The translations under genes were made by a program, and so were the position numbers. The notes below the pieces were generated by a model. It had not been told where the DNA came from. It worked only from the letters and a program-made list of their open reading frames with translations, and made no database searches. Shown here in pieces: positions 48,331-58,990 of a stretch of DNA of 64,000 nucleotides (within the stretch, counting starts at the first letter, position 1; each line of letters starts with the position of its first letter). The stretch lies in NCBI GenBank assembly GCA_963669175.1, contig OY769902.1, forward strand, positions 1,696,001-1,760,000. The letters run 5' to 3'. This DNA is from a bacterium. GTDB taxonomy: Bacteria > Electryoneota > Electryoneia > Electryoneales > Electryoneaceae.

Positions 48331-51027
48331 CTAGAACTTGTACGTATACATCACCGAGAAGATGTAGTCATTGCGCTTATAATACGTGGGCTGAGGGATG
48401 GAATAACCACCATTGATAACGGTTTCTTCCGTCATGTCAAACTTCTGACCGTTCCAGTATTCCCACTGACCATTTTCGGAGATGCTGGTAACACTCAAGT
48501 AGCCGGTAATAATATGGTTGGGATAAAATTCATAGTCGACACCGGCTGCAAAATCAATCTGCATCATATCCACAATCTGGTATTTGATCGTGCCAGCCCT
48601 CAGCGCGGCAGCTTCCAGTGGATCCGTCGTTGTAAGGCCTGGATCTGTTTGGTTGATCAGGCTTTCACCACTGCCAATCAGTAAACGCGGACTGAAATAT
48701 GGGACCAGTTTGCGGTTCAAGAACAAGAACTCAATCCTCGGCGAGAAAGTGAAGTAGTTGATGTCAGTCTCGCCGTTGCTTGCGGTCTGTTTGGCATTGG
48801 AAATCGCCAGTATAGTACGATATGGTCCGGGATACTCTGTTCCAACCTGGAATGCAAGAACAAACTGGTCGGCATCACTATCCGCCTGGTACTCATTGCT
48901 GCGATTGGACGTTATCACGTTCAGTGAAAGCTGATGGTCAAGGTTACCGGTCTGGAGCCTGTAGGCGGCGCCAACATTGATCAGATTGTTGGTCAACGAT
49001 TGACGTGTGTCAATAATCGTCGCGGAATCAATCGGCGCATTATCGTAGGGGAAAATGGCCGTTGAATCACCATCATTTTCAAAAAGCTGGTGCCGGTAGG
49101 TCACGTTGAAATCGGGATACCGTGGATCGGTGTACAAATTCACCCCTACCATGATCTCGTTGCGATCAAGCGTCAAATCACTCTTGTCGTTCACATTGTT
49201 CTGGTAGTGAGAATACCCAAGGTTCAGGTACAACTTGCTGTTGAGCATGCGAATCCGGTCACGGACGTAATATCCTGCTTCGTCGTTGTACATGGAAGGA
49301 TTACCCAGCGTAATGTAGCTGGTGTTAATCTTCCTGTAGCCGATGCGCAAGTCGTTGAACAGGTAGCGTAGTCTCAGCTTGGTGTCGTAGGAAAGAGAAT
49401 TGGCTATGATGGACTTGGCAACGTCTTCAGCCTTGATCGTCGAACCTGTGCTGTCCTCAGACAGCCCATCGTCCGGCAAAGGCTGGAAATACGAGTTGAT
49501 CCAGATGATGTTTTTGTAGTTTTTCAATTCACTGAAGGCTTCTTCATACGTATTGTCGTTGTAAAGCGACATCGCAACGCTGGTTGACCATACGATTCGG
49601 CGCCGGTCAAAATTCATATCCAGGTTCAAACCTGACACCACGTTGTCTTTTGGCGTTGCGCCCGTATAGGTCGTGCGGGCGTATAAACTATCAAGATTTG
49701 TTATATAGGCCAGATCACCAGCATCCGGAAGTCGATCCAGGTATACAGAGTTCCGAACGTCTACCACTTTCATTGCAGTATAGCCGAAATCGACACGGTC
49801 CTTGAATCCCAGGTTACTCGAGATTTTCACTGCGGACAGCATACGTCGGAATGTGCCGGTGTTATTAATGGTTCTTTGCACATTATAGGACGTGTCCGGG
49901 ACCACATTGGAGCTGTCAATACTCATGGTCACCGTGCGCTGCTGATAACTGAGGCCGCTAACGTGGCGGTACATCTCGCCATAAACAGCATATACATTTA
50001 TCGGGCCTGGTTTAATGGCCAGCTCGATACCGCGCACCCGGCTGCCATAAAGAACCAGTTCATTGTACTTGGGGTTCACATCACCGACACGCAGCCGCCA
50101 CCATGGCATACCCATGGAGAACAGGAAACGATGTTGCGGCTGGAGGGAAGAATGTTCCTTGCTGGTAAAACGACCCCGCGCAACAGCGTTGAATTTTCCG
50201 GCTTTGAAGGTGATGGAGAAGGCTTCATTGCCGTAACTTAATCCTTGTTCCGAATATTGGCTTGCCACACCTTCACCGCTGACAAAACCGGTGACATATT
50301 TTCTGTACCCGGCCCGGCTTTCACGTTCCGCTGGCGATACCATGTTAAAGAACCAGGTGCTTAACACCTCCCGACCAGAATCTGTCTGGTGGAACAGGTC
50401 AATCCTGTGTCTGCCGGGTGTCATATCACTAATGACAGCAGTAAGCACTTCAGCGCTGATCATGGCTTCACCGGTTCTATCCTTACCGTCTACGTGAAGA
50501 ACGATCCGCTGCGGGTCGATTTGTCCGAGAGCGTTGTTAAAAGCCAGGGCGACCAGGACTTCACTTCCCATGATGGACTTGCCCTGTTCCGGACTGATGA
50601 TCAGGATCTGGGTGTTGGTGACTTCGTCGCCGGTTCCCTGGATGGATACCAGAACCGGGTTTACATCACCATTGTCCGGGTACGTAATCGTTGTCCCGTC
50701 ATTGAATTCCATGGCGATGTAGTATTCCATCCCCACAGAAACAACTTCTCTACCGGGAATTGCCGCGGAGTAGGTATTCCCCGCAAGGTCCATCTCCACG
50801 TAATCGTACGATTCTTGGTCAACATTTCGGTACCACAGGTAGGCTAGCGATACCTGGTTGACATCGTAATCACCGGCCACACGGGCTTCGACATTAATGG
50901 GACGTCCCATTTCGCCGAATGTAACGGGTGAATGTTCAATGTAAACAACAGCGTTTGTGCCGGCTAATGCCATAAATGGCAGACCAATCACGCAGGCAAC
51001 AAGAAAAACACGGAGAGCATACTTCAT
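48331..51027 (-). CDS. Large hypothetical outer-membrane protein (N-terminal Ig-like domains + beta-barrel)
   Basis: Signal peptide from 51027; 'IEHSP...YSAAIP...EYYI' Ig-like domain; amphipathic strands; C-terminal beta-signal 'YIFSVMYTYKF'. Confidence 0.75.
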   Translation of the reverse strand: MKYALRVFLVACVIGLPFMALAGTNAVVYIEHSPVTFGEMGRPINVEARVAGDYDVNQVSLAYLWYRNVDQESYDYVEMDLAGNTYSAAIPGREVVSVGMEYYIAMEFNDGTTITYPDNGDVNPVLVSIQGTGDEVTNTQILIISPEQGKSIMGSEVLVALAFNNALGQIDPQRIVLHVDGKDRTGEAMISAEVLTAVISDMTPGRHRIDLFHQTDSGREVLSTWFFNMVSPAERESRAGYRKYVTGFVSGEGVASQYSEQGLSYGNEAFSITFKAGKFNAVARGRFTSKEHSSLQPQHRFLFSMGMPWWRLRVGDVNPKYNELVLYGSRVRGIELAIKPGPINVYAVYGEMYRHVSGLSYQQRTVTMSIDSSNVVPDTSYNVQRTINNTGTFRRMLSAVKISSNLGFKDRVDFGYTAMKVVDVRNSVYLDRLPDAGDLAYITNLDSLYARTTYTGATPKDNVVSGLNLDMNFDRRRIVWSTSVAMSLYNDNTYEEAFSELKNYKNIIWINSYFQPLPDDGLSEDSTGSTIKAEDVAKSIIANSLSYDTKLRLRYLFNDLRIGYRKINTSYITLGNPSMYNDEAGYYVRDRIRMLNSKLYLNLGYSHYQNNVNDKSDLTLDRNEIMVGVNLYTDPRYPDFNVTYRHQLFENDGDSTAIFPYDNAPIDSATIIDTRQSLTNNLINVGAAYRLQTGNLDHQLSLNVITSNRSNEYQADSDADQFVLAFQVGTEYPGPYRTILAISNAKQTASNGETDINYFTFSPRIEFLFLNRKLVPYFSPRLLIGSGESLINQTDPGLTTTDPLEAAALRAGTIKYQIVDMMQIDFAAGVDYEFYPNHIITGYLSVTSISENGQWEYWNGQKFDMTEETVINGGYSIPQPTYYKRNDYIFSVMYTYKF

Positions 51028-51136
51028 GCGGCGCCCCTGGTATAGTTCGTGGTTCCTTCCGGTCCCTCCCTCAGAATTCAAATGTAGAGTGTTGGCAGAA
51101 GCAACCTCAACATTATCAGGAGACCCCGAACAGAAA

Positions 51137-51168
51137 ATACAGCCCGCCGGCCTTGCCGGCGGGCTACA
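51137..51168 (-). other. GC-rich hairpin between the FecR-domain gene and the barrel gene (terminator or GTAG-type REP)
   Basis: Minus strand GTAGCCCGCCGGC-AAG-GCCGGCGGGCT followed by GTATTTTC. Confidence 0.5.
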
Positions 51169-51203
51169 GGAAGTCCGTAAAACTCAACTTGGTTTACAAC
51201 TGA

Positions 51204-51899
51204 TCAATCGGTCTGTTGGTATTGAATGATCAACGTCTTACGTTGCCCATTCTCGTCCTGAAGTTCGATTTCAATGTAGTCCGTCGAACCCTCATCGTTT
51301 ACCTCGGGCACGGAGCCCTGATCGGCGCCTCCGGTTTCCATGTTGCCGTCCGGATCGACGGTTCCCATGAAACCAGGTCCGATTTCCGACTCCTGACCTG
51401 TCTGAATATTCAGCAGGCTTACGAGACCTTCCAGGGTGATCTGGAGAGTGGTGCCATCCGGTTCAACGATGACCCAGAACTGGGTGCCTTTGACCGACGC
51501 GACTGCGGTCGGGGTAGCCACTTCCATGGCGCCCTTCTGCTGGGCCACGTTTGCAAACAACTCACCCACTTCCATGTTGACACGTTTCGAAAGCGAATAG
51601 TCATCGTTACGTGTCGCAGTTACTGTAATTTCAGTATTGGGTCGAATTTTTATCTGGGTTTTGTCATCAGTAAATACCATGGATACGAAGCCGTCCGCAC
51701 CGGTCCGCACCATGTGACCGTCGTCAAGGACTTCGCCGAAATTCAGCTTGGTCCAACCCTGACCACGGTTTACTTCAGTTTTGCCTTGAACGACGGTAAC
51801 TACTGCAATCGCCTTGGCGCCATCCGCCATCGCACATACCGCAAGCAGGAATACCAGCAGAATGGCGAACGCTGCGGTTCCGAATCTATGCGTTCTCAT
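51204..51899 (-). CDS. Exported FecR-domain protein
   Basis: Signal peptide; 'VRTGADG...FTDDKTQIKIRPNT', 'VATPTAVASVKGTQF', 'LEGLVSL'. Confidence 0.85.
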   Translation of the reverse strand: MRTHRFGTAAFAILLVFLLAVCAMADGAKAIAVVTVVQGKTEVNRGQGWTKLNFGEVLDDGHMVRTGADGFVSMVFTDDKTQIKIRPNTEITVTATRNDDYSLSKRVNMEVGELFANVAQQKGAMEVATPTAVASVKGTQFWVIVEPDGTTLQITLEGLVSLLNIQTGQESEIGPGFMGTVDPDGNMETGGADQGSVPEVNDEGSTDYIEIELQDENGQRKTLIIQYQQTD

Positions 51900-51920
51900 G
51901 GTTCTTTCTCCTGTTTGCGC

Positions 51921-53120
51921 CTATTCCGCAATGATTACGTTTTCAACATCAAAACCTGCGCCGAGCATCAGGTTTGTCAGTTCTGAGATTGAACGTCCGC
52001 TGACCCCGCCGAAAGAGATGGTGGAAGGGGAATAGCCGGACAATTGGTTTACGATATACGCGTACTGTTCCGGTGAAAGTTTGTTGCTCAGAATATCCAG
52101 CAACTGATTCATCATCGGATCCATGCCAGGCTCATTGCCTGCTGCACGATGACCACTACCACCCATACCAACAAAGGTAAACTCGCCTGGAGCGCTTCGG
52201 AACGTACGGAAGCCGCCGGGGATAACAGTCGGCGCCTGCATTTCAACCATCCAGGCATACCGTCTTCCCCTGATCAGCGGACTTTCACCCATTCCCGTAC
52301 CGAGGAAGAAATGGTGATCGTACGTTTGAGGATGACCGGCAAACTTGGTCTGGCTGGCATCCTGTGAACGCTGCAAAATGACATCCATCGGGTCCATATT
52401 TTCCTGGCCGGGCTGGAACTCGACGATGTACAGCATAACCTGGTCCGGGGATACCGGTGCGCCGGTCCAGGTCCAGTTGAACTCCACAGTCGGTGATGTG
52501 ATATCATCGTACGGCACGGGGTTCATGGGGATGGGGCGCGAAGGATTGTATACCTGGATCGTTGCCAGGTAATGACCATCCGGCGAGACCATGCCATTGA
52601 AATCACCAGGACGAAGTTCCACACCCAGCATATACACCGATGCCGCCAGGTTCAGACCATCAATAAGGTCTGCAAACTCAGCCGGGGATGCGGTCTGGCT
52701 GTGATCACCGTCCCTGCGCATAAAGGCAAGGTCGTTGCTCCACTGGTTGTTGTACAACCTGCCACCGGGTACGTTATCTGCCCACTGGCCAAGTGCAAAC
52801 GGACGGCTGGCATACTCAATGATTCTTCCGTGTCCGGCTACTTCAAGGTATACGTAGAGCACATAATCGTCATCGCGTTCTGCATCAGTGATTCCTGAGA
52901 TCTGGATATACATGATCGGTGGAATATCACCGAAATCCCAGTCTTCACCCTGCTCCAAAGCGTTCACATCAACAACGTCCCCAATCGGAAATATCTGGGG
53001 CGTTATGCCGTATTGAGCCTGCTGTGTGAAGCCGCTGGAGACGTAGAAGGCGTTTGCCTGTAACGGCAGGATCAACAAACCCGCCAGCACAAACAACCCA
53101 CACAACTCTCTCCACTTCAT
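51921..53120 (-). CDS. Exported hypothetical protein with Ig/Fn3-like modules
   Basis: RBS AGGAGGT, signal peptide; 'PIPMNP...EFNWTW...LYIVEFQPGQ...LIRGRRYAWMV' Fn3-like pattern. Confidence 0.65.
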   Translation of the reverse strand: MKWRELCGLFVLAGLLILPLQANAFYVSSGFTQQAQYGITPQIFPIGDVVDVNALEQGEDWDFGDIPPIMYIQISGITDAERDDDYVLYVYLEVAGHGRIIEYASRPFALGQWADNVPGGRLYNNQWSNDLAFMRRDGDHSQTASPAEFADLIDGLNLAASVYMLGVELRPGDFNGMVSPDGHYLATIQVYNPSRPIPMNPVPYDDITSPTVEFNWTWTGAPVSPDQVMLYIVEFQPGQENMDPMDVILQRSQDASQTKFAGHPQTYDHHFFLGTGMGESPLIRGRRYAWMVEMQAPTVIPGGFRTFRSAPGEFTFVGMGGSGHRAAGNEPGMDPMMNQLLDILSNKLSPEQYAYIVNQLSGYSPSTISFGGVSGRSISELTNLMLGAGFDVENVIIAE

Positions 53121-53285
53121 GGTGGACCTCCTGTAAACTGTTTCAAGCCAATGGTTCGCACCACGGGCAGAGCTTTTCGATGACACTATCCCTCATCTAA
53201 TAAACTACGAACGAACCATGTGGGAATTGTGCCCAGTATCACTCTTTTTTTAAAAAGAGAAACCTGAATGGAGTCTCAAAGAGTA

Positions 53286-54422
53286 TCAATTTTTTCTACG
53301 ACCTGATCCTTTCTTTTTAACTCTATTTAAAAACTCTGATATGCCATGATCTTGATAATATTTCCATGCTTTTCGATATCCTTTGCCATAAGCCGGATCA
53401 TCATTTTCTTCAAGCTGATCCAAATGATAGTCTGCGAGTTTACTGTGAATGGATTCCAGCATAATTCGCATGGCTACATTTGCCGAGCCTTCCCGCCAGT
53501 CGGCATGGCCGCCGTCCGCATCATTCTCGTGTTGCCAGACATGAAAAAGCTCATGTGCGGCAACACCGGATAACATATCACGCGGGAGACCATAAAGAAA
53601 ATAGATTGTTGTATCTTCACGAATAACTCTTCCATTCATTGTCTCCGAGTGAACCGAGTGCAGCCCATTGGCATCACCTTCGCCGCCATGCAATTCATGT
53701 AATTGATTTTTATCAACAAGGACGATGCTGATGTCATCCAGGCTGGTGTTGAATCGGATACCGTTGGCTTCCAGCACCGCAGCGGCTTCACGGACAATCT
53801 GAGCAGCCTTCCCGGCGTCGGTGACTTCCGTTTCACGGCAGACTTCACACTGAATACGTCCATCCGCCAATTTCCAGGCGTGTCCCGGCAGAGCAAAACG
53901 TCCGCAAGAATCACATAATTCAACCTGGTCCTTATACTCGGCGCTGATCGTGGTTCCCCACCAGTCCGTTACATAGGGACCGAGAATAGGCTGGCCGGTG
54001 ATAGCGCAAATCGGGGCAAGGTTCTCTACATAACACGATTCATGATACACCTTGCCATCAATGGTGAAGTATTTGTCCGATACAGGTGCGCCACACCATT
54101 CACAACGCGGCGAGAACTCATGGTGATAACAATCGGGGTGATAAAATTTGCCCTTGTGTTCGATATAGCTGCCATCGATACGAAACCCGCAGGCGGCGCA
54201 TTTGAAGCATTCCGGATGAAAGTATTTGCCATTGGCTTCGATGTACTGGCTGGTGATTACTTTACCGCATCCGGCACAGCGTACCCTCTGTGCCAGGGCA
54301 TGGGTCGGTAATACAATCAAGCCAACTGCAGCCGGTGTCACCACACGAACAAATCGCCTGCGATCCCACTTTTCGGCATCGGCTCGACATGTTCTCTCTG
54401 TGCTGTTCTTTTTGCAAGCCAT
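53286..54422 (-). CDS. LIM-domain / DA1-like zinc metallopeptidase with twin-arginine signal
   Basis: 'DRRRFV...ALA|Q'; repeats CxxC-x16-HxxC ('CAGC..FHPECFKCAAC..YHPDC', 'CEWC..YHESC'); 'LYGLPR...AHELFHVW', 'EGSAN', 'DPAYGKGYR'. Confidence 0.85.
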   Translation of the reverse strand: MACKKNSTERTCRADAEKWDRRRFVRVVTPAAVGLIVLPTHALAQRVRCAGCGKVITSQYIEANGKYFHPECFKCAACGFRIDGSYIEHKGKFYHPDCYHHEFSPRCEWCGAPVSDKYFTIDGKVYHESCYVENLAPICAITGQPILGPYVTDWWGTTISAEYKDQVELCDSCGRFALPGHAWKLADGRIQCEVCRETEVTDAGKAAQIVREAAAVLEANGIRFNTSLDDISIVLVDKNQLHELHGGEGDANGLHSVHSETMNGRVIREDTTIYFLYGLPRDMLSGVAAHELFHVWQHENDADGGHADWREGSANVAMRIMLESIHSKLADYHLDQLEENDDPAYGKGYRKAWKYYQDHGISEFLNRVKKKGSGRRKN

Positions 54423-54530
54423 AATCTATTAATATACTCTAACCTGACTTCAGAAGAAAAGCGAGGTGATTTTCTCTCGACGAAGCTGTTGTAAAGGGAA
54501 TAAGCAGTTCGCGAAAGTTCTTGTTGAGTG

Positions 54531-55148
54531 GAAAGCAATCAGCCTGCTTCAGCAGGCTCTTTTTAGCACCCGGCTGAAGCCCTGTCTCTTGCTCACATCT
54601 TCGTGTTTCTGCCACCCCAGAGGGGGTGGTATATTTTAGTGTAGGGTTGACGCTGTCTGTTTAGCGTCTACCCTACGAAAAAGATCAAACCTTATCTCAA
54701 CCCTGGAAGGGTTGCATAACGTATAATTTACACCCAATTGGTTTGTATAGAATATAAAATGCGTTATTTCCTGTATTTATTGAACGTACTAATATGAATC
54801 GCGTATTATGCAACCCTTCCAGGGTTGATTATTCGTTAGAATACCTGACATAGTGTACAGGCCAAACAGACGGCCTGTACACTATGCTAAAATAGGGAAT
54901 CCCGCCGGGATTCTAAAAATGCTATGTCCACAACTCTTTTACTGATACAGCTTTCAGAAGATGTGAGTAAGAGACAGGGCTTTAGCCGGGTGGATTAGTG
55001 TAACTAAATAAAAGAGCGCGCTTTAGCGTGCTTGCTTGAACAACAGATTGCTGTTTTGGAAAGCACCCTGAAGGGCGCTCGATATAGTTGTTATCTTTGT
55101 CCCCCGGCTAAAGCCGGGGGCTAAGGGGAGCAGGCTAAAGCCTGCTAA
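54531..55148. repeat. Inverted copy of the 31198-31411 REPIN-like element, interrupted by an insertion
   Basis: 54531-54581 joined to 54978-55148 reconstitutes the reverse complement of 31198-31411 with the same hairpin order. Confidence 0.82.
54582..54977. mobile_element. 396-bp non-autonomous element with IS50/Tn5-like 19-bp terminal inverted repeats
   Basis: Left end CTGTCTCTTGCTCACATCT; right end (reverse complement) CTGTCTCTTACTCACATCT. Flanks GGCTGAAGCC and GGCTTTAGCC. No transposase inside. Confidence 0.8.
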
Positions 55149-55369
55149 TACTAATGGATAGAACCCCCTTGAGGCGAATACTTATGGATAGAATTCCCTT
55201 GAGATAGTAAACGGAAAGAAGCGCTTTTCAGAAACTGTGATAGAAGACAGATGTTTCGGCGAGAATAACTTTCGCTAATCTGAAGCCGCAAGAACTTCCG
55301 AGAATACCATACGTGGAACATATCCATTGTGACACGGTACAAGTTTCAGGACGAAAACAGGCTGGATTC

Positions 55370-57322
55370 ATGCGTAACGATAGATATACATATTTGTTGA
55401 TTATTTCCCTGCTGGCTTTCTCCTTTTTCCCACTGGAGAAATCAATAGCACAATCCCGCAATGTTGTGGTTCCTCGATCCCAGCAGACAGAAGAAATCCG
55501 TCAGGAAGCGACCAGGAAAAGCCGTACCGCTACCAGGCTTGAGCAAAGAGGGCAAATCGACGAGGCGTTGGCAATCTGGGATTTACTGGCGGACCAATTT
55601 CCCGACAACAGCTCCTATTTTGAAGGGCAGGTGCGTTGCCTGACCACGTTGGCCAGGTATAATGAAGCTGCAAGGTTACTGGAAGAGCGGATACCGCTGG
55701 AGATAGACCAGCGCCAGAAAGCGGAATACCTGGTGCGGCTTGGCGGGGTGTACCAGAAACTGAACAAACCGACCCAGGCCGAGGTCAATTACCGTCAGGC
55801 CGAGGAGACCGCTCGAGGGGTGGAAGGCGCTTATCATGCGGTGGCCATGGAGTTTCTGCGTCAACGTCAAACAGAGCGGGCGATTAGCATTTTAAAGTCT
55901 TCGCGAGTTGATCTCGAGAACCCCTATTTGCACGCGTTTACCATCGCATCCCTGAAACAGAATACCATGGACTGGGCCGGAGCGACCGAAGAATACCTGT
56001 TGGCGCTCCAGGAAAGCGGCACACGCAGGCAATCCGTCCTGCGGTCTTTTGCCACTTTCCCCAACGATCCGAATACGGATAAAGCTGTTGAGGCCAGCAT
56101 TCGTGCGGAGCTGGACCGTACCGAGAAGGAGCAGCCCTGGCCCGGGTATCGAGACGCTCTGTGGCAAATCCTGATCGATCAACGGATCAAGAGCGGCAAT
56201 TTTGAAGGCGCTGTGGATCTGCTGGAAACAATCCAGGAGGAAGAGGGCGAAGAGGGCTGGCTGCTTCAGTTCGCCCAGACAGCCGTAGACGAAGGCGCGC
56301 ACGATGCTGCCAGACGTGCGCTGGAGATAGCAGCGCAACGCACGCAAAGTGAAAATCGACGCGCTGAAGTTGATCTTGCCCTGGCGACCCTGGTGCAAGC
56401 AGAAGGCGATTTCTCGCAGGCGGACAGTTTGTATGGCACTGTTATCGGAAGGCTGGAGAAGAATCCTACCCTGGCTTATTCAGCCCTGATCCGGCGTGGA
56501 CAGATGCGATTGACGTATGTCGATAATCCATTGGGGGCGTTGGAAGATTTCGAACACCTTGCCGAATTGCAGGGTAAGCAGGTGGAGCAACAGGTTGAGT
56601 ACCTGCTGGCTGCCACACTGCTTCGTCTGCACCGGTATGATGAAGCGCGTCCACATCTGCAACAGACGATTTCGCCCCAACTTCCTGACGAGCCTCAGCG
56701 CGGAAGAAGACGTCCAAGGCAACCGGTTGCCTACGATGCCGGACTGGGCGCTCATGCCGCGTATCTGAATGCACGGTTATCATGGTGGGAGAACAACCCG
56801 GAACGAACAACCGCTATCCTCGATAGCATGCTGAAGCATCCCACCGGCGCAGAAGTGGAAAACGAAGCGTTTGACCTGCTTTTCCTGCTGAGCAGTAAAG
56901 CGGATTCAAGTATTCTCCGTCGATTTGCACAAACAGACCAGGCATTGTTTGAACAACGAGTAGAAGATGCGGAGAACATGCTCGCGTCCATTGCTACGGA
57001 CACCGCATCATCCTTGTCCGCAAACGCTTCCTGGTGGCTGGTGGAAATCGCTGTGCAGACCGGGGCGGAGGATGTCCCGGAAGTTGTTGACGCTTATGTC
57101 ACGCAGTATCCGGGCACCCCGCGTGCAGAAGAGGCATGGCTGAACCTGGGAATCTGGTATGAGGATCAGGGCTTGACTGATGAAGCGAAAACCTGCTATG
57201 AAACGATACTTATCGACTATTATGACGGCCTGCTGACCTCGGAGGCACGATTGCGCCTGGATCAACTGGCGGGAATGGAACTGCCGCCCCTGCAACCACC
57301 TTCGCCTTTTGAGACGCCGTAG
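55370..57322 (+). CDS. Exported tetratricopeptide-repeat protein
   Basis: Signal peptide and many TPR-like helix pairs; C-terminal 'YPGTPRAEEAWLNLG...YETILIDYYDGLLTSEARLRL'. Confidence 0.85.
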   Translation: MRNDRYTYLLIISLLAFSFFPLEKSIAQSRNVVVPRSQQTEEIRQEATRKSRTATRLEQRGQIDEALAIWDLLADQFPDNSSYFEGQVRCLTTLARYNEAARLLEERIPLEIDQRQKAEYLVRLGGVYQKLNKPTQAEVNYRQAEETARGVEGAYHAVAMEFLRQRQTERAISILKSSRVDLENPYLHAFTIASLKQNTMDWAGATEEYLLALQESGTRRQSVLRSFATFPNDPNTDKAVEASIRAELDRTEKEQPWPGYRDALWQILIDQRIKSGNFEGAVDLLETIQEEEGEEGWLLQFAQTAVDEGAHDAARRALEIAAQRTQSENRRAEVDLALATLVQAEGDFSQADSLYGTVIGRLEKNPTLAYSALIRRGQMRLTYVDNPLGALEDFEHLAELQGKQVEQQVEYLLAATLLRLHRYDEARPHLQQTISPQLPDEPQRGRRRPRQPVAYDAGLGAHAAYLNARLSWWENNPERTTAILDSMLKHPTGAEVENEAFDLLFLLSSKADSSILRRFAQTDQALFEQRVEDAENMLASIATDTASSLSANASWWLVEIAVQTGAEDVPEVVDAYVTQYPGTPRAEEAWLNLGIWYEDQGLTDEAKTCYETILIDYYDGLLTSEARLRLDQLAGMELPPLQPPSPFETP

Positions 57323-57406: not shown

Positions 57407-58990
57407 TCACAACTTTATATCAAGTGAATCTTTCACCTTCCTGACAACGTAAATCCATTCCTGGCCAACACGTAGTGAGTCGCTCGGGCTGAATCCCGCA
57501 AGATCCGTCAGCACAATACCGCGTTGCGAAGAATCGTCTGGCGCCAGTCCGATAACCAGGAGTCGATTACTGCCCTGGAATACGCTGTCCGGGAGTGGGG
57601 AAGGACAGGCAATTCTTGTGCGCTCACGTTCATGCTGTGCGATAGTTATCTGCAAGTTGGCAGACGATATATTCCGTACCTGTATCGTATTCAATGTGGG
57701 AAAATCGACCATTGCCGCGCGTGAGGAATAGGAACCATCGAAAAACACCAGGGCTGCTTCTCCTTCCGGATCAAGGCTGATAATCGCATCACGCCACTCG
57801 CCAAGGTTTCTGTCGTTCGCTTTTATACTGCTTGCAGTGCAAGGCGGTGTGATGGCATACACTTGCCATGGATGGGTAAACCAGAGCAGCGACAGTAAAA
57901 GGACGACACCTGTCGCGGACCAGGCCTGCCAGGAACTGCGTGCCGCAAACACAAGCATCAAAGCGGCTATCAGGGTCAACGCCGGGACCAGCAGCAGGAA
58001 ATAGCCGTCATGAAACAACACAACTAATGCGATTACGGGCAAGATTGTCCAGGCCAGGAAAAAGGAACGGATGTAACTGTCCTGATCACGCCATGCAGCC
58101 CAGAGCACATGAAGCCGGGGCAGCAGGGCTACGGGGGCAAAACCGATAGCCAGCAGCAAATATATCCCTGAATGGCTCAGTTGATAGAGAAGGCTTCGTG
58201 TTGTGGTATGGAATCTGCCGATTTCGAAATCCCGTATCCCGCGAGCGAGGTATTCCACACCCTGACCGGATGCGATTGCAGCGGGCAGAAACCATAACAG
58301 GATGCCAATGAGCAAAGCGGCAAGCGAGGTCAGCATGTGCGATGAACGGGCGTAATCCTTTTTCATTCCCCACACCAGCAATGGGATGAGCAACAGGCTT
58401 TCCGGACGCCAACCCCCCATCCACCCGATAAAAAACGCGGCAATACTCCAGTACCACAGGCTTCTTTTATCCCAGAGTACCAGCCATGCTCCAAGAATAC
58501 TGATCACAGCAGATGCGGAGTAACTCAAGCCGATTTCACTGTAAAACCAGAGCAGGGGATTAAATGCCATCAACACAGCGGCCAGGAGGGCGAACAGCTC
58601 CGCTTCCTGCAAGTTCAGGCCGATACGTTCTGCCAATGGACCACGCGCGAACCAGTGTAAAAGGAAAATCGCCAGCAGGGTTTGTAACAGCGATGCGGCA
58701 TGCAAAACATCCAGTGCGGCGCCCTGAATCAGGAGACGAAGCGCCTGTAAAACCAGCACATGGTTCAGGTAACCGGGGAAATGAGGCATGTCTTCACCCG
58801 GATGCCATCCGTCAACCGCCATGATGAAATTGAAGCTTTCCCAACCGTATGGCTCGGCGGCGACATAGGGGAGACGGCTGACCAGGGTGATCAGTAGCAA
58901 CAGCCAGATACCGTAACGGTAAAAGGCGGTGCCACCCGTGGTCAGAGCTTGATCTGCCGTGTTCAGGCTTGCTTCCTGGGGTGAACTCAT
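57407..58990 (-). CDS. Polytopic membrane protein, probable GT-C glycosyltransferase
   Basis: About ten or more hydrophobic segments; first loop 'WESFNF...MPHFPGY', 'FNPLLWFYSE', 'GGWRP'. Confidence 0.6.
   Translation of the reverse strand: MSSPQEASLNTADQALTTGGTAFYRYGIWLLLLITLVSRLPYVAAEPYGWESFNFIMAVDGWHPGEDMPHFPGYLNHVLVLQALRLLIQGAALDVLHAASLLQTLLAIFLLHWFARGPLAERIGLNLQEAELFALLAAVLMAFNPLLWFYSEIGLSYSASAVISILGAWLVLWDKRSLWYWSIAAFFIGWMGGWRPESLLLIPLLVWGMKKDYARSSHMLTSLAALLIGILLWFLPAAIASGQGVEYLARGIRDFEIGRFHTTTRSLLYQLSHSGIYLLLAIGFAPVALLPRLHVLWAAWRDQDSYIRSFFLAWTILPVIALVVLFHDGYFLLLVPALTLIAALMLVFAARSSWQAWSATGVVLLLSLLWFTHPWQVYAITPPCTASSIKANDRNLGEWRDAIISLDPEGEAALVFFDGSYSSRAAMVDFPTLNTIQVRNISSANLQITIAQHERERTRIACPSPLPDSVFQGSNRLLVIGLAPDDSSQRGIVLTDLAGFSPSDSLRVGQEWIYVVRKVKDSLDIKL

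Follow-up and report, generated by a model that had tools for sequence, protein, structure and literature searches.

The window analysed here is a 64,000-nucleotide (nt) stretch of contig OY769902.1 (assembly GCA_963669175.1, positions 1,696,001 to 1,760,000 of the forward strand) from a bacterium of the Electryoneaceae, and the subject of this analysis is one minus-strand gene within it, whose product combines LIM-type zinc fingers with a peptidase domain of the plant DA1 type. The open reading frame (ORF) at 53286-54422 begins with the ATG at 54422 and encodes 378 amino acids (aa); the gene is single-copy in its own genome, and the G+C content of the region is ordinary (0.48-0.51). A sequence-only reading of this DNA had listed a leader, three fingers, a degenerate fourth finger, a CxxC...CxxC finger and the motifs LYGLPR, HELFH, EG and YGKGYR, and every one of them was found at its exact position. 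The architecture is a leader, a LIM domain, an extra LIM-type finger, a LIM-like domain that has lost its first zinc site, and a DA1-type peptidase, with the following features:

53286-54422, minus strand: whole gene for a DA1-like zinc peptidase of 378 aa with LIM fingers, predicted to be exported (stop codon at 53286-53288; ORF, Pfam and profile-profile match)
54423-54443, minus strand: conserved 21-nt block (GTTAGAGTATATTAATAGATT) immediately 5' of the ATG
54291-54422, minus strand: leader peptide (residues 1-44) with a long charged n-region, a weakly hydrophobic h-region and A42-L-A44 followed by Q45
54345-54365, minus strand: twin-arginine motif D-R-R-R-F-V-R (residues 20-26), which is T-R-R-R-V-I-R in the sister protein L002
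54114-54278, minus strand: canonical LIM domain (fingers 1 and 2, residues 49-103) with C49, C52, H69, C72 and C75, C78, H95, C98
54021-54104, minus strand: extra single LIM-type finger (finger 3, residues 107-134) with C107, C110, H127, C130
53832-54008, minus strand: LIM-like domain (residues 139-197), made of the degenerate finger 4 and the intact finger 5
53289-53822, minus strand: predicted gluzincin-type catalytic domain (residues 201-378; VIA-align and Pfam DA1-like)
53490-53555, minus strand: active-site motif H290-E-L-F-H294...x16...E311-G, with putative zinc ligands and the putative catalytic Glu
53373-53390, minus strand: Y345-G-K-G-Y-R motif, with Y345, G346 and G348 invariant

Hidden Markov model (HMM) searches for LIM and DA1-like domains, which the sequence-only reading had named as a check, both passed the curated Pfam cut-offs. 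The LIM family (PF00412) scored 49 bits against a cut-off of 22.9 (E 7.3e-13), matching in two places, of which residues 49-103 gave the higher score, and the DA1-like family (PF12315) scored 48.2 bits against a cut-off of 25 (E 1.1e-12; best stretch 322-369), the latter reaching 51.8 bits summed over the frame in the genome-wide profile search. The motif content is well past chance expectation. Three fingers of the form CxxC-x16-HxxC occupy residues 49-72, 75-98 and 107-130, the first two being separated by a 2-residue spacer (FK) and followed by a short helix. LIM domains follow the pattern CxxC-x16-23-HxxC, two residues, CxxC-x16-21-CxxC/H/D, and the eight ligands of the LIM domain fit it, the seventh being His instead of Cys in the alignment to CRP1. 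H127 and C130 of finger 3 are invariant. Finger 4 retains C139 alone (in 'CAIT') and reads SAEY at the HxxH position, and its segment is still modelled at a predicted local distance difference test score (pLDDT) above 90. Finger 5 (residues 170-195) is intact, with C170, C173, C192 and C195, the last two of which are invariant. Among the 179 bacterial-type proteins scored (182 minus two eukaryotic LIM-only matches and one plant protein), 123 keep an intact CxxC...HxxH as the first zinc site of their LIM-like domain, 44 show variant ligands there, and the site is degenerate in eight, a set that includes the window protein, its L002 sister, P0003, P0005 and P0011.

The AlphaFold2 model, built with 36 relatives, has a pLDDT of 90.9 and a predicted template modelling score of 0.78, with low values solely in residues 1-16 and 38-41 and a pLDDT above 90 across the two-finger LIM domain, and shows residues 21-36 of the leader as a helix. 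The best Foldseek matches to the model were all tandem-LIM proteins (3mmk_A, E 2e-7; 7d2t_B, template modelling score 0.65). VIA-align, a structure aligner independent of Foldseek, matched residues 45-182 to PINCH LIM4-5 (Z 10.8) and the LIM domain to CRP1 (Z 8.4; root-mean-square deviation (rmsd) 1.5 Å over 60 residues). A sequence search of the PDB likewise found CRP1 (E 2.4e-9) and paxillin (E 6.9e-9); apart from LIM chains, its matches at E ≤ 1 were two weak ones to PCF11 chains, and a DA1-type peptidase of solved structure was not among them. The fingers are thus predicted to be of true LIM type with a treble-clef fold, as the Pfam score, the CRP1 match and both structure searches of the predicted model indicate, in agreement with the sequence-only reading. 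The zinc-ligand pattern and fold are held in common with the tandem-LIM adaptors PINCH, paxillin, CRP and LMO/Lhx; those eukaryotic scaffolds are cytoplasmic or nuclear and carry no enzyme, whereas in the window protein the fingers are joined to a peptidase and predicted to lie outside the cytoplasm.

Residues 201-377 of the model matched the catalytic domains of M1 aminopeptidase, LTA4H and thermolysin in VIA-align with Z of 8.5-10.7 (1z1w_A, Z 10.7, rmsd 3.0 Å over 148 residues; thermolysin, Z 8.7). The model thus places the catalytic domain in the gluzincin fold, consistent with the residues H290, E291, H294 and E311, which are invariant in the bacterial alignments together with G312, Y345, G346 and G348. 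LYGLPR begins at residue 276 and EGSAN at residue 311, and the HExxH-x16-EG spacing is kept in 152 of the 179 members. Y345 is a candidate for the Tyr that stabilizes the transition state. The gluzincins (M1 aminopeptidases, LTA4H, thermolysin) have HExxH with a downstream Glu and a similar catalytic fold over ~150 residues, but identity is just 11-16%, and the window protein has neither the M1-type N-terminal β-domain nor the C-terminal helical domain, its accessory module being zinc fingers.

The closest comparison is with plant DA1. A profile made from bacterial sequences only (A3) and a plant-only DA1/DAR1 profile (A4) were aligned by hhalign with 99.9% probability (E 2e-34) over 304 columns, spanning the first finger through the C-terminus. 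In this alignment the plant LIM domain corresponds to bacterial fingers 1 and 2 and the plant LIM-like domain to fingers 4 and 5, and finger 3 is gapped against the plant profile, that is, inserted relative to plant DA1. The plant HEMMH-x15-EE corresponds to HELFH-x15-RE; the second Glu of the plant EE, the invariant one, is kept at equal spacing and the first is replaced by Arg. The proposed relationship of the peptidase to plant DA1 is borne out as homology across the whole LIM, LIM-like and HExxH unit, with an identity to a plant DA1 of only ~25%. In Dong 2017 (PMC5322733), the DA1 active site is given as HEMMH-x15-EE of clan MA, and the C274Y substitution in the LIM-like domain abolishes peptidase activity. 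With the plant DA1/DAR proteins (PF12315 plus PF00412) the window protein has in common the HExxH with a downstream Glu at equal spacing, and it retains intact the final LIM-like zinc finger, whose plant counterpart holds, according to Dong 2017, the C274 position needed for activity. It differs from them as follows: First, an export leader stands where the plant proteins have the region of ubiquitin-interacting motifs (UIMs), and no UIM family was found in the protein by the Pfam scan at E ≤ 0.1, in line with what had been read from the sequence. Second, it has one extra LIM-type finger (107-134) and has lost the first zinc site of the LIM-like domain. Third, it is predicted to be extracytoplasmic, whereas the plant protein is nuclear or cytosolic.

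A word-indexed search returned 38 relatives, almost all of them bacterial or metagenomic, 300-400 aa long and carrying both Pfam domains, one of which is already named 'protein DA1' in its source (Candidatus Electryonea clarkiae). In an exhaustive profile search, the cluster representatives numbered 11,489 at E ≤ 1e-3; at E ≤ 1e-30 there were 1,041, the clusters being drawn at 50% identity. The carriers among species-representative genomes belong to Electryoneota, Calditrichota, Zixibacteria, Ignavibacteriota, Cloacimonadota, Spirochaetota, Planctomycetota, Bacteroidota and Chloroflexota, and are environmental metagenome-assembled genomes (MAGs) or free-living environmental lineages; within its own phylum the gene is patchy: 16 of 79 genomes have it, and among the 51 genomes of high quality 11 do. 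Burroughs, Iyer and Aravind are said to have described prokaryotic LIM domains, in a 2011 abstract, as partners of membrane-associated peptidases. Dong 2017 (PMC5322733) cites Burroughs 2011 (Mol Biosyst 7:2261) for bacterial LIM-like peptidases and names Roseiflexus, with the same architecture of LIM and LIM-like domains plus a DA1-type peptidase. Given this citation and the existing 'protein DA1' annotation, the statement of the sequence-only reading that LIM domains are regarded as eukaryotic is out of date. The gene is a member of a known bacterial DA1-like LIM-peptidase family, in print in 2011 and 2017, and what is specific to this member is a credible Tat-type (twin-arginine translocation) leader confined to its genus, the extra LIM finger relative to plants and the lost zinc site.

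A quick maximum-likelihood tree was made from 45 rows, five of them plant sequences (angiosperms only) and 40 of them bacterial; the latter are what a filter on motif and length left of 47 sequences, namely those of 46 loci and of the window. The window protein pairs with L002 with a Shimodaira-Hasegawa-like approximate likelihood ratio (SH-aLRT) support of 99, and the pair lies inside an Electryoneota-type clade adjoining a Calditrichota/Hatepunaea clade. Taxon labels are clustered on the tree (11 changes against 19.1 when shuffled, with none of 200 shuffles as low), which suggests that descent in the family was mainly vertical. The plants form one long branch joined to a long Chloroflexota branch; we rejected this sister grouping as evidence, given its SH-aLRT of 11 and a long-branch warning. 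Since the plants have no supported bacterial sister, the tree speaks neither for nor against the suggestion that this protein is a bacterial precursor of DA1, and the window gene holds no special position relative to plant DA1 in the tree.

These data also bear on the idea, raised in the sequence-only reading, of an effector aimed at eukaryotes, acquired from a eukaryotic LIM/DA1 protein or mimicking one. In its favour, plants are where this architecture is otherwise best known, and the protein appears to be exported. But the family is large and bacterial, as the 1,041 clusters show, its carriers (Electryoneota, Calditrichota, Zixibacteria, Ignavibacteriota and others) are environmental, the tree tracks taxonomy, and the window protein sits deep in the Electryoneota/Calditrichota-type clade, distant from the plant branch. 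The regional G+C content is ordinary, and the only secretion signal seen is a general export leader. We therefore regard an effector as very improbable and dropped the idea.

Rules on N-termini assigned an export leader to 123 of the 179 family members: 112 plain hydrophobic, seven with a lipobox and four with a twin arginine (RR). The rest are 46 N-termini too short to judge, eight leaderless by rule and two proteins without HExxH. By these rules a predicted N-terminal export leader is the norm of the family, though not universal, and the earlier claim that the window protein is exported fits with both its own leader and this norm. Five of the eight divergent members inspected are leaderless: L044 and L045 (Chloroflexota), L030 (Spirochaetales), and L039 and L046 (Bacteroidales); the open frame of L045 extends only nine codons 5' of its start. 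The Chloroflexota forms L044 and L045, having no leader, would be cytoplasmic, in contrast to the window protein with its Tat-type leader.

Several features of this leader point to Tat. The Tat consensus is (S/T)RRxFLK, with which DRRRFVR agrees at the RR, F, L-like and K-like positions. The n-region is unusually long (19-20 residues), and the Kyte-Doolittle maximum of the h-region is 2.48 (1.87 in the L002 sister), against 3.0-3.4 in the nearest relatives with plain leaders; A42-L-A44 fits an AxA cleavage site. The genome encodes TatC (220.5 bits) and has two TatA matches (58.2 and 43.4 bits), one of which adjoins tatC. In a crude catalogue of 3,536 ORFs, 1,647 have an N-terminal hydrophobic segment and just 11 of these have a properly placed RR motif. 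Pfam searches on seven of the ten others showed DRRKFVK to belong to a 4Fe-4S dicluster protein, QRRDFIR to a DUF362 protein and SRRHFLS to a metallophosphoesterase, families that are typical cofactor-bearing Tat cargo; the remaining four were two proteins with tails of the type IX secretion system (T9SS) and two without a family. The RR motif is rare and informative in this genome and marks cofactor proteins, which, with the presence of TatC and TatA, makes the Tat-style leader credible. As a side observation, the n-region holds cysteines before the RR motif, C3 and C12 here (~54387-54416) and three in the L002 sister.

The envelope into which the fingers would be exported was examined in 42 genomes carrying the family, namely that of the window and those of 41 loci (L014 and the weak loci L047-L050 were left out, and L006, L033 and L037 lie in genomes already counted). 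DsbB and VKOR drive the formation of envelope disulfides; DsbB was found in none of the 42 genomes and VKOR in two, both of them Chloroflexota with leaderless family proteins. The Electryoneota have been interpreted by Williams et al. (2022; PMC9324843) as facultative anaerobes whose abundance peaks in anoxic water, in a paper that mentions neither LIM nor DA1.

Taken as a whole, these observations are best explained if the gene product is a zinc metallopeptidase that belongs to the DA1-like family of bacteria and is located outside the cytoplasm, an identification that we consider highly probable. The data show the domain architecture, the homology to DA1, the intact catalytic residues, a leader and a genome that encodes Tat components; in the following scheme we infer by which route the protein is exported, that it is loaded with zinc, that its fingers hold substrates, and what these substrates are. 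Translation would start from the ATG at 54422, and the leader would most likely route the protein, pre-folded and zinc-loaded, through Tat; the 44-residue leader would then be removed to leave a mature protein of approximately residues 45-378. H290, H294 and E311 would bind zinc, with E291 as the catalytic base. Eukaryotic LIM domains bind extended peptides and plant DA1 needs its LIM-like domain for activity; by analogy, because of both, the fingers may form a rigid platform on the peptidase, where envelope or secreted proteins would be held by extended segments and cut at HExxH. The activation mechanism of the plant protein could not apply, because there are no UIMs here and no ubiquitin outside the cell. 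The envelope of the phylum, having neither DsbB nor VKOR, would allow Cys-ligated zinc fingers to persist outside the cytoplasm.

Several results weigh against this interpretation, in whole or in its details. In the literature searched, no functional study of a bacterial member was found, and neither peptidase activity nor zinc content is in print for any; this is what the sequence-only reading had anticipated in writing that such sequences may be in databases, as they are, with no functional description known. A family-wide search of neighbouring genes gave no conserved neighbour or partner and no substrate. In addition, DsbB and VKOR are absent in all 79 genomes of the phylum, whether the gene is present or not. 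We therefore rejected their absence as a specific correlate of the gene, and a non-oxidizing envelope is a permissive background, not a specific association. As to the route, the curated Tat-signal profiles gave no match on the leader (TIGR01409 in NCBIfam at E ≤ 10, PF10518 in Pfam at E ≤ 0.1), although these profiles are short and the HMMER filters discard weak matches. The leader classes and the h-region and cleavage measures come from hydrophobicity and regular-expression rules rather than a trained Tat predictor. Finally, a convincing Tat-style leader is found only in the window protein and its L002 sister, the other relatives having plain or lipoprotein leaders; export of the fingers in this family therefore does not require Tat.

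The same results give weight to another route, in which the protein would cross by Sec in an unfolded state, or stay in the inner membrane through a signal anchor that is not cleaved, and would fold and take up zinc in the periplasm, RRR being merely n-region charge. Plain Sec-type or lipobox leaders are carried by 119 of the 123 leader-bearing members, the fingers of which are evidently able to fold after Sec export; the Tat-signal HMMs are silent, and some RR motifs of the genome are on probable Sec cargo such as the two T9SS-tail proteins. Against this stand the agreement of DRRRFVR with the consensus and the retention of TRRRVIR in the sister, the less hydrophobic h-region, the long n-region, and the near-identical DRRKFVK on the 4Fe-4S protein of the same genome. 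On balance, we favour export of the window protein by Tat, with only modest confidence, and give the Sec or signal-anchor route a smaller but appreciable chance. The Tat leader proposed in the sequence-only reading is accordingly plausible on its motif, its h-region, the presence of TatC and TatA and the rarity of the RR motif, whereas the silent Tat-signal HMMs and the plain or lipoprotein leaders of the relatives speak against it.

A bolder reading joins four parts, and we consider it unlikely that all of them hold together. In it, LIM fingers, generally regarded as adaptors inside eukaryotic cells, would in a large family of bacterial peptidases function as a matter of course outside the cytoplasm; this would be possible only in envelopes lacking DsbB and VKOR, with VKOR lineages keeping a leaderless, cytoplasmic form that groups weakly with plant DA1; in one genus the leader would have shifted from Sec to Tat, with the protein crossing folded and zinc-loaded and one structural zinc site dropped; and the peptidase may have as its targets two envelope proteins whose genes follow its own, the FN3-like one and the one with a FecR domain.

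[quoted passage not shown] The bacterial relatives, which are small, free of the ubiquitin layer and confidently modelled, are possible simple systems for studying how LIM fingers position substrates or gate the active site. A mostly exported family of Cys/His zinc fingers, here apparently using Tat, also raises questions on zinc loading and thiol redox in envelopes of the Fibrobacterota-Chlorobiota-Bacteroidota (FCB) type. The bacteriological interest is modest but real, and classification is unchanged, the family having already been catalogued and printed in 2011 and 2017.

The ATG of the gene is in register with the ATG of L002, its nearest relative at 67% identity, and the 21-nt block immediately upstream has two mismatches against L002, whereas the flanking DNA has diverged. 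On account of the aligned ATG and this conserved block we place the start upstream of the RR motif, and the concern in the sequence-only reading that the true start might lie downstream is answered. The next possible starts, GTG at V27 and V28, would each delete the charged n-region that the L002 protein keeps. The block occurs once in the genome and has TATATT 8 nt 5' of the ATG and no Shine-Dalgarno sequence; it is possibly a promoter, or the start of a leaderless or nearly leaderless mRNA. A scan for sigma-70 promoters gave four candidates against 5.2 in shuffles, no excess, and Rfam had no match in 53000-55400. The intergenic region at 54423-55312, which separates the gene from a divergent TPR gene, is unusually long (~890 nt) and contains hairpin or terminator-like sites at 54541-54558, 54610-54631, 54811-54827 and 54897-54913. 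Further upstream, at 57407-58990 on the minus strand, lies a gene for a 527-aa multi-pass membrane protein with a weak match, below threshold at E 0.005, to the family of TMEM260-like protein O-mannosyltransferases.

Downstream, on the same strand, follow three genes (p421, a FecR-domain gene and p916) with these features:

53121-53285, minus strand: conserved 165-nt spacer to the next gene, 79% identical to L002, ending in AGGAGG and ATG
51921-53120, minus strand: p421, predicted secreted protein with FN3-like β-sandwiches (true start MKWRELC)
51204-51899, minus strand: predicted secreted protein with a FecR domain (Pfam FecR, E 2.1e-12)
51138-51168, minus strand: strong terminator-like hairpin between the FecR gene and p916, with a T tail and a stem of 14 bp, 10 of them G-C

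The p421 protein has no Pfam family, and its model is of low confidence (pLDDT 63), showing two FN3-type sandwiches with generic FN3-type matches of Z ~8; it has no bearing on a link to the peptidase. The spacer before it contains long blocks identical with L002, the 79% being over the aligned stretch, and no terminator-like site within 53121-53285; p421 may have its own promoter or 5' untranslated region (5'-UTR). The real start of p916, a 916-aa ORF, is probably an internal MKYALRVFL and not the TTG at 51081. Proteins of the p916 type are ~900 aa long with an aromatic last residue and are probably outer-membrane barrels. The p421/FecR/p916 module occurs three times in the genome, at 48331-53120 of the window and at approximate genome positions 2122981-2137617 and 4861875-4867208. 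One copy directly adjoins a giant ORF of 11,593 aa (4826820-4861601), and another is split by inserted genes.

It is conceivable that the peptidase gene is the first of a four-gene envelope module with these three (FN3-like protein, FecR protein and ~900-aa outer-membrane protein) and that the peptidase processes or regulates one of their products. The four genes lie on one strand, the spacer is free of terminator-like sites, and the order LIM gene-p421-FecR is kept in L002 and in the Candidatus Electryonea clarkiae locus L003, whose peptidase is 47% identical. However, homologues of p421 and FecR lie 3' of the gene in only two of 49 related loci and p916 in one, the neighbours elsewhere being unrelated (T9SS-tail proteins, Ser/Thr kinases, PBP1 and others). 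No LIM-peptidase adjoins the two paralogous modules at ~2.12-2.14 Mb and 4.86-4.87 Mb, the peptidase gene being single-copy. Moreover, the strong hairpin parts the FecR gene from p916, the conserved spacer with its own AGGAGG makes a separate promoter or 5'-UTR possible, and the L003 gene after FecR appears, from its N-terminal sequence, to resemble dnaX and not a barrel protein. We thus think a four-gene module improbable. The sequence-only reading was right that a three-gene cassette lies directly downstream on the same strand; the functional link that it offered is weak, given the two loci of 49 and the paralogous modules without the gene.

The clusters that do recur among the neighbours are T9SS-tail FG-GAP proteins (10 loci), Ser/Thr kinases (eight), PBP1 (five) and some housekeeping genes, none of them throughout the family. 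Large Ser/Thr kinase genes encoding TPR or WD40 repeats, between one and three in number, often come after the gene on the same strand in Zixibacteria, Planctomycetota and Chloroflexota (cluster c2, eight loci: L025, L032, L034, L037, L038, L042, L044 and L045), and in these phyla the association with kinase genes could be real. In five loci of the Calditrichota/Hatepunaea clade (L008, L009, L011, L012 and L026), the gene lies directly 3' of, and on the same strand as, that for a class A penicillin-binding protein, which combines a transglycosylase and a transpeptidase.

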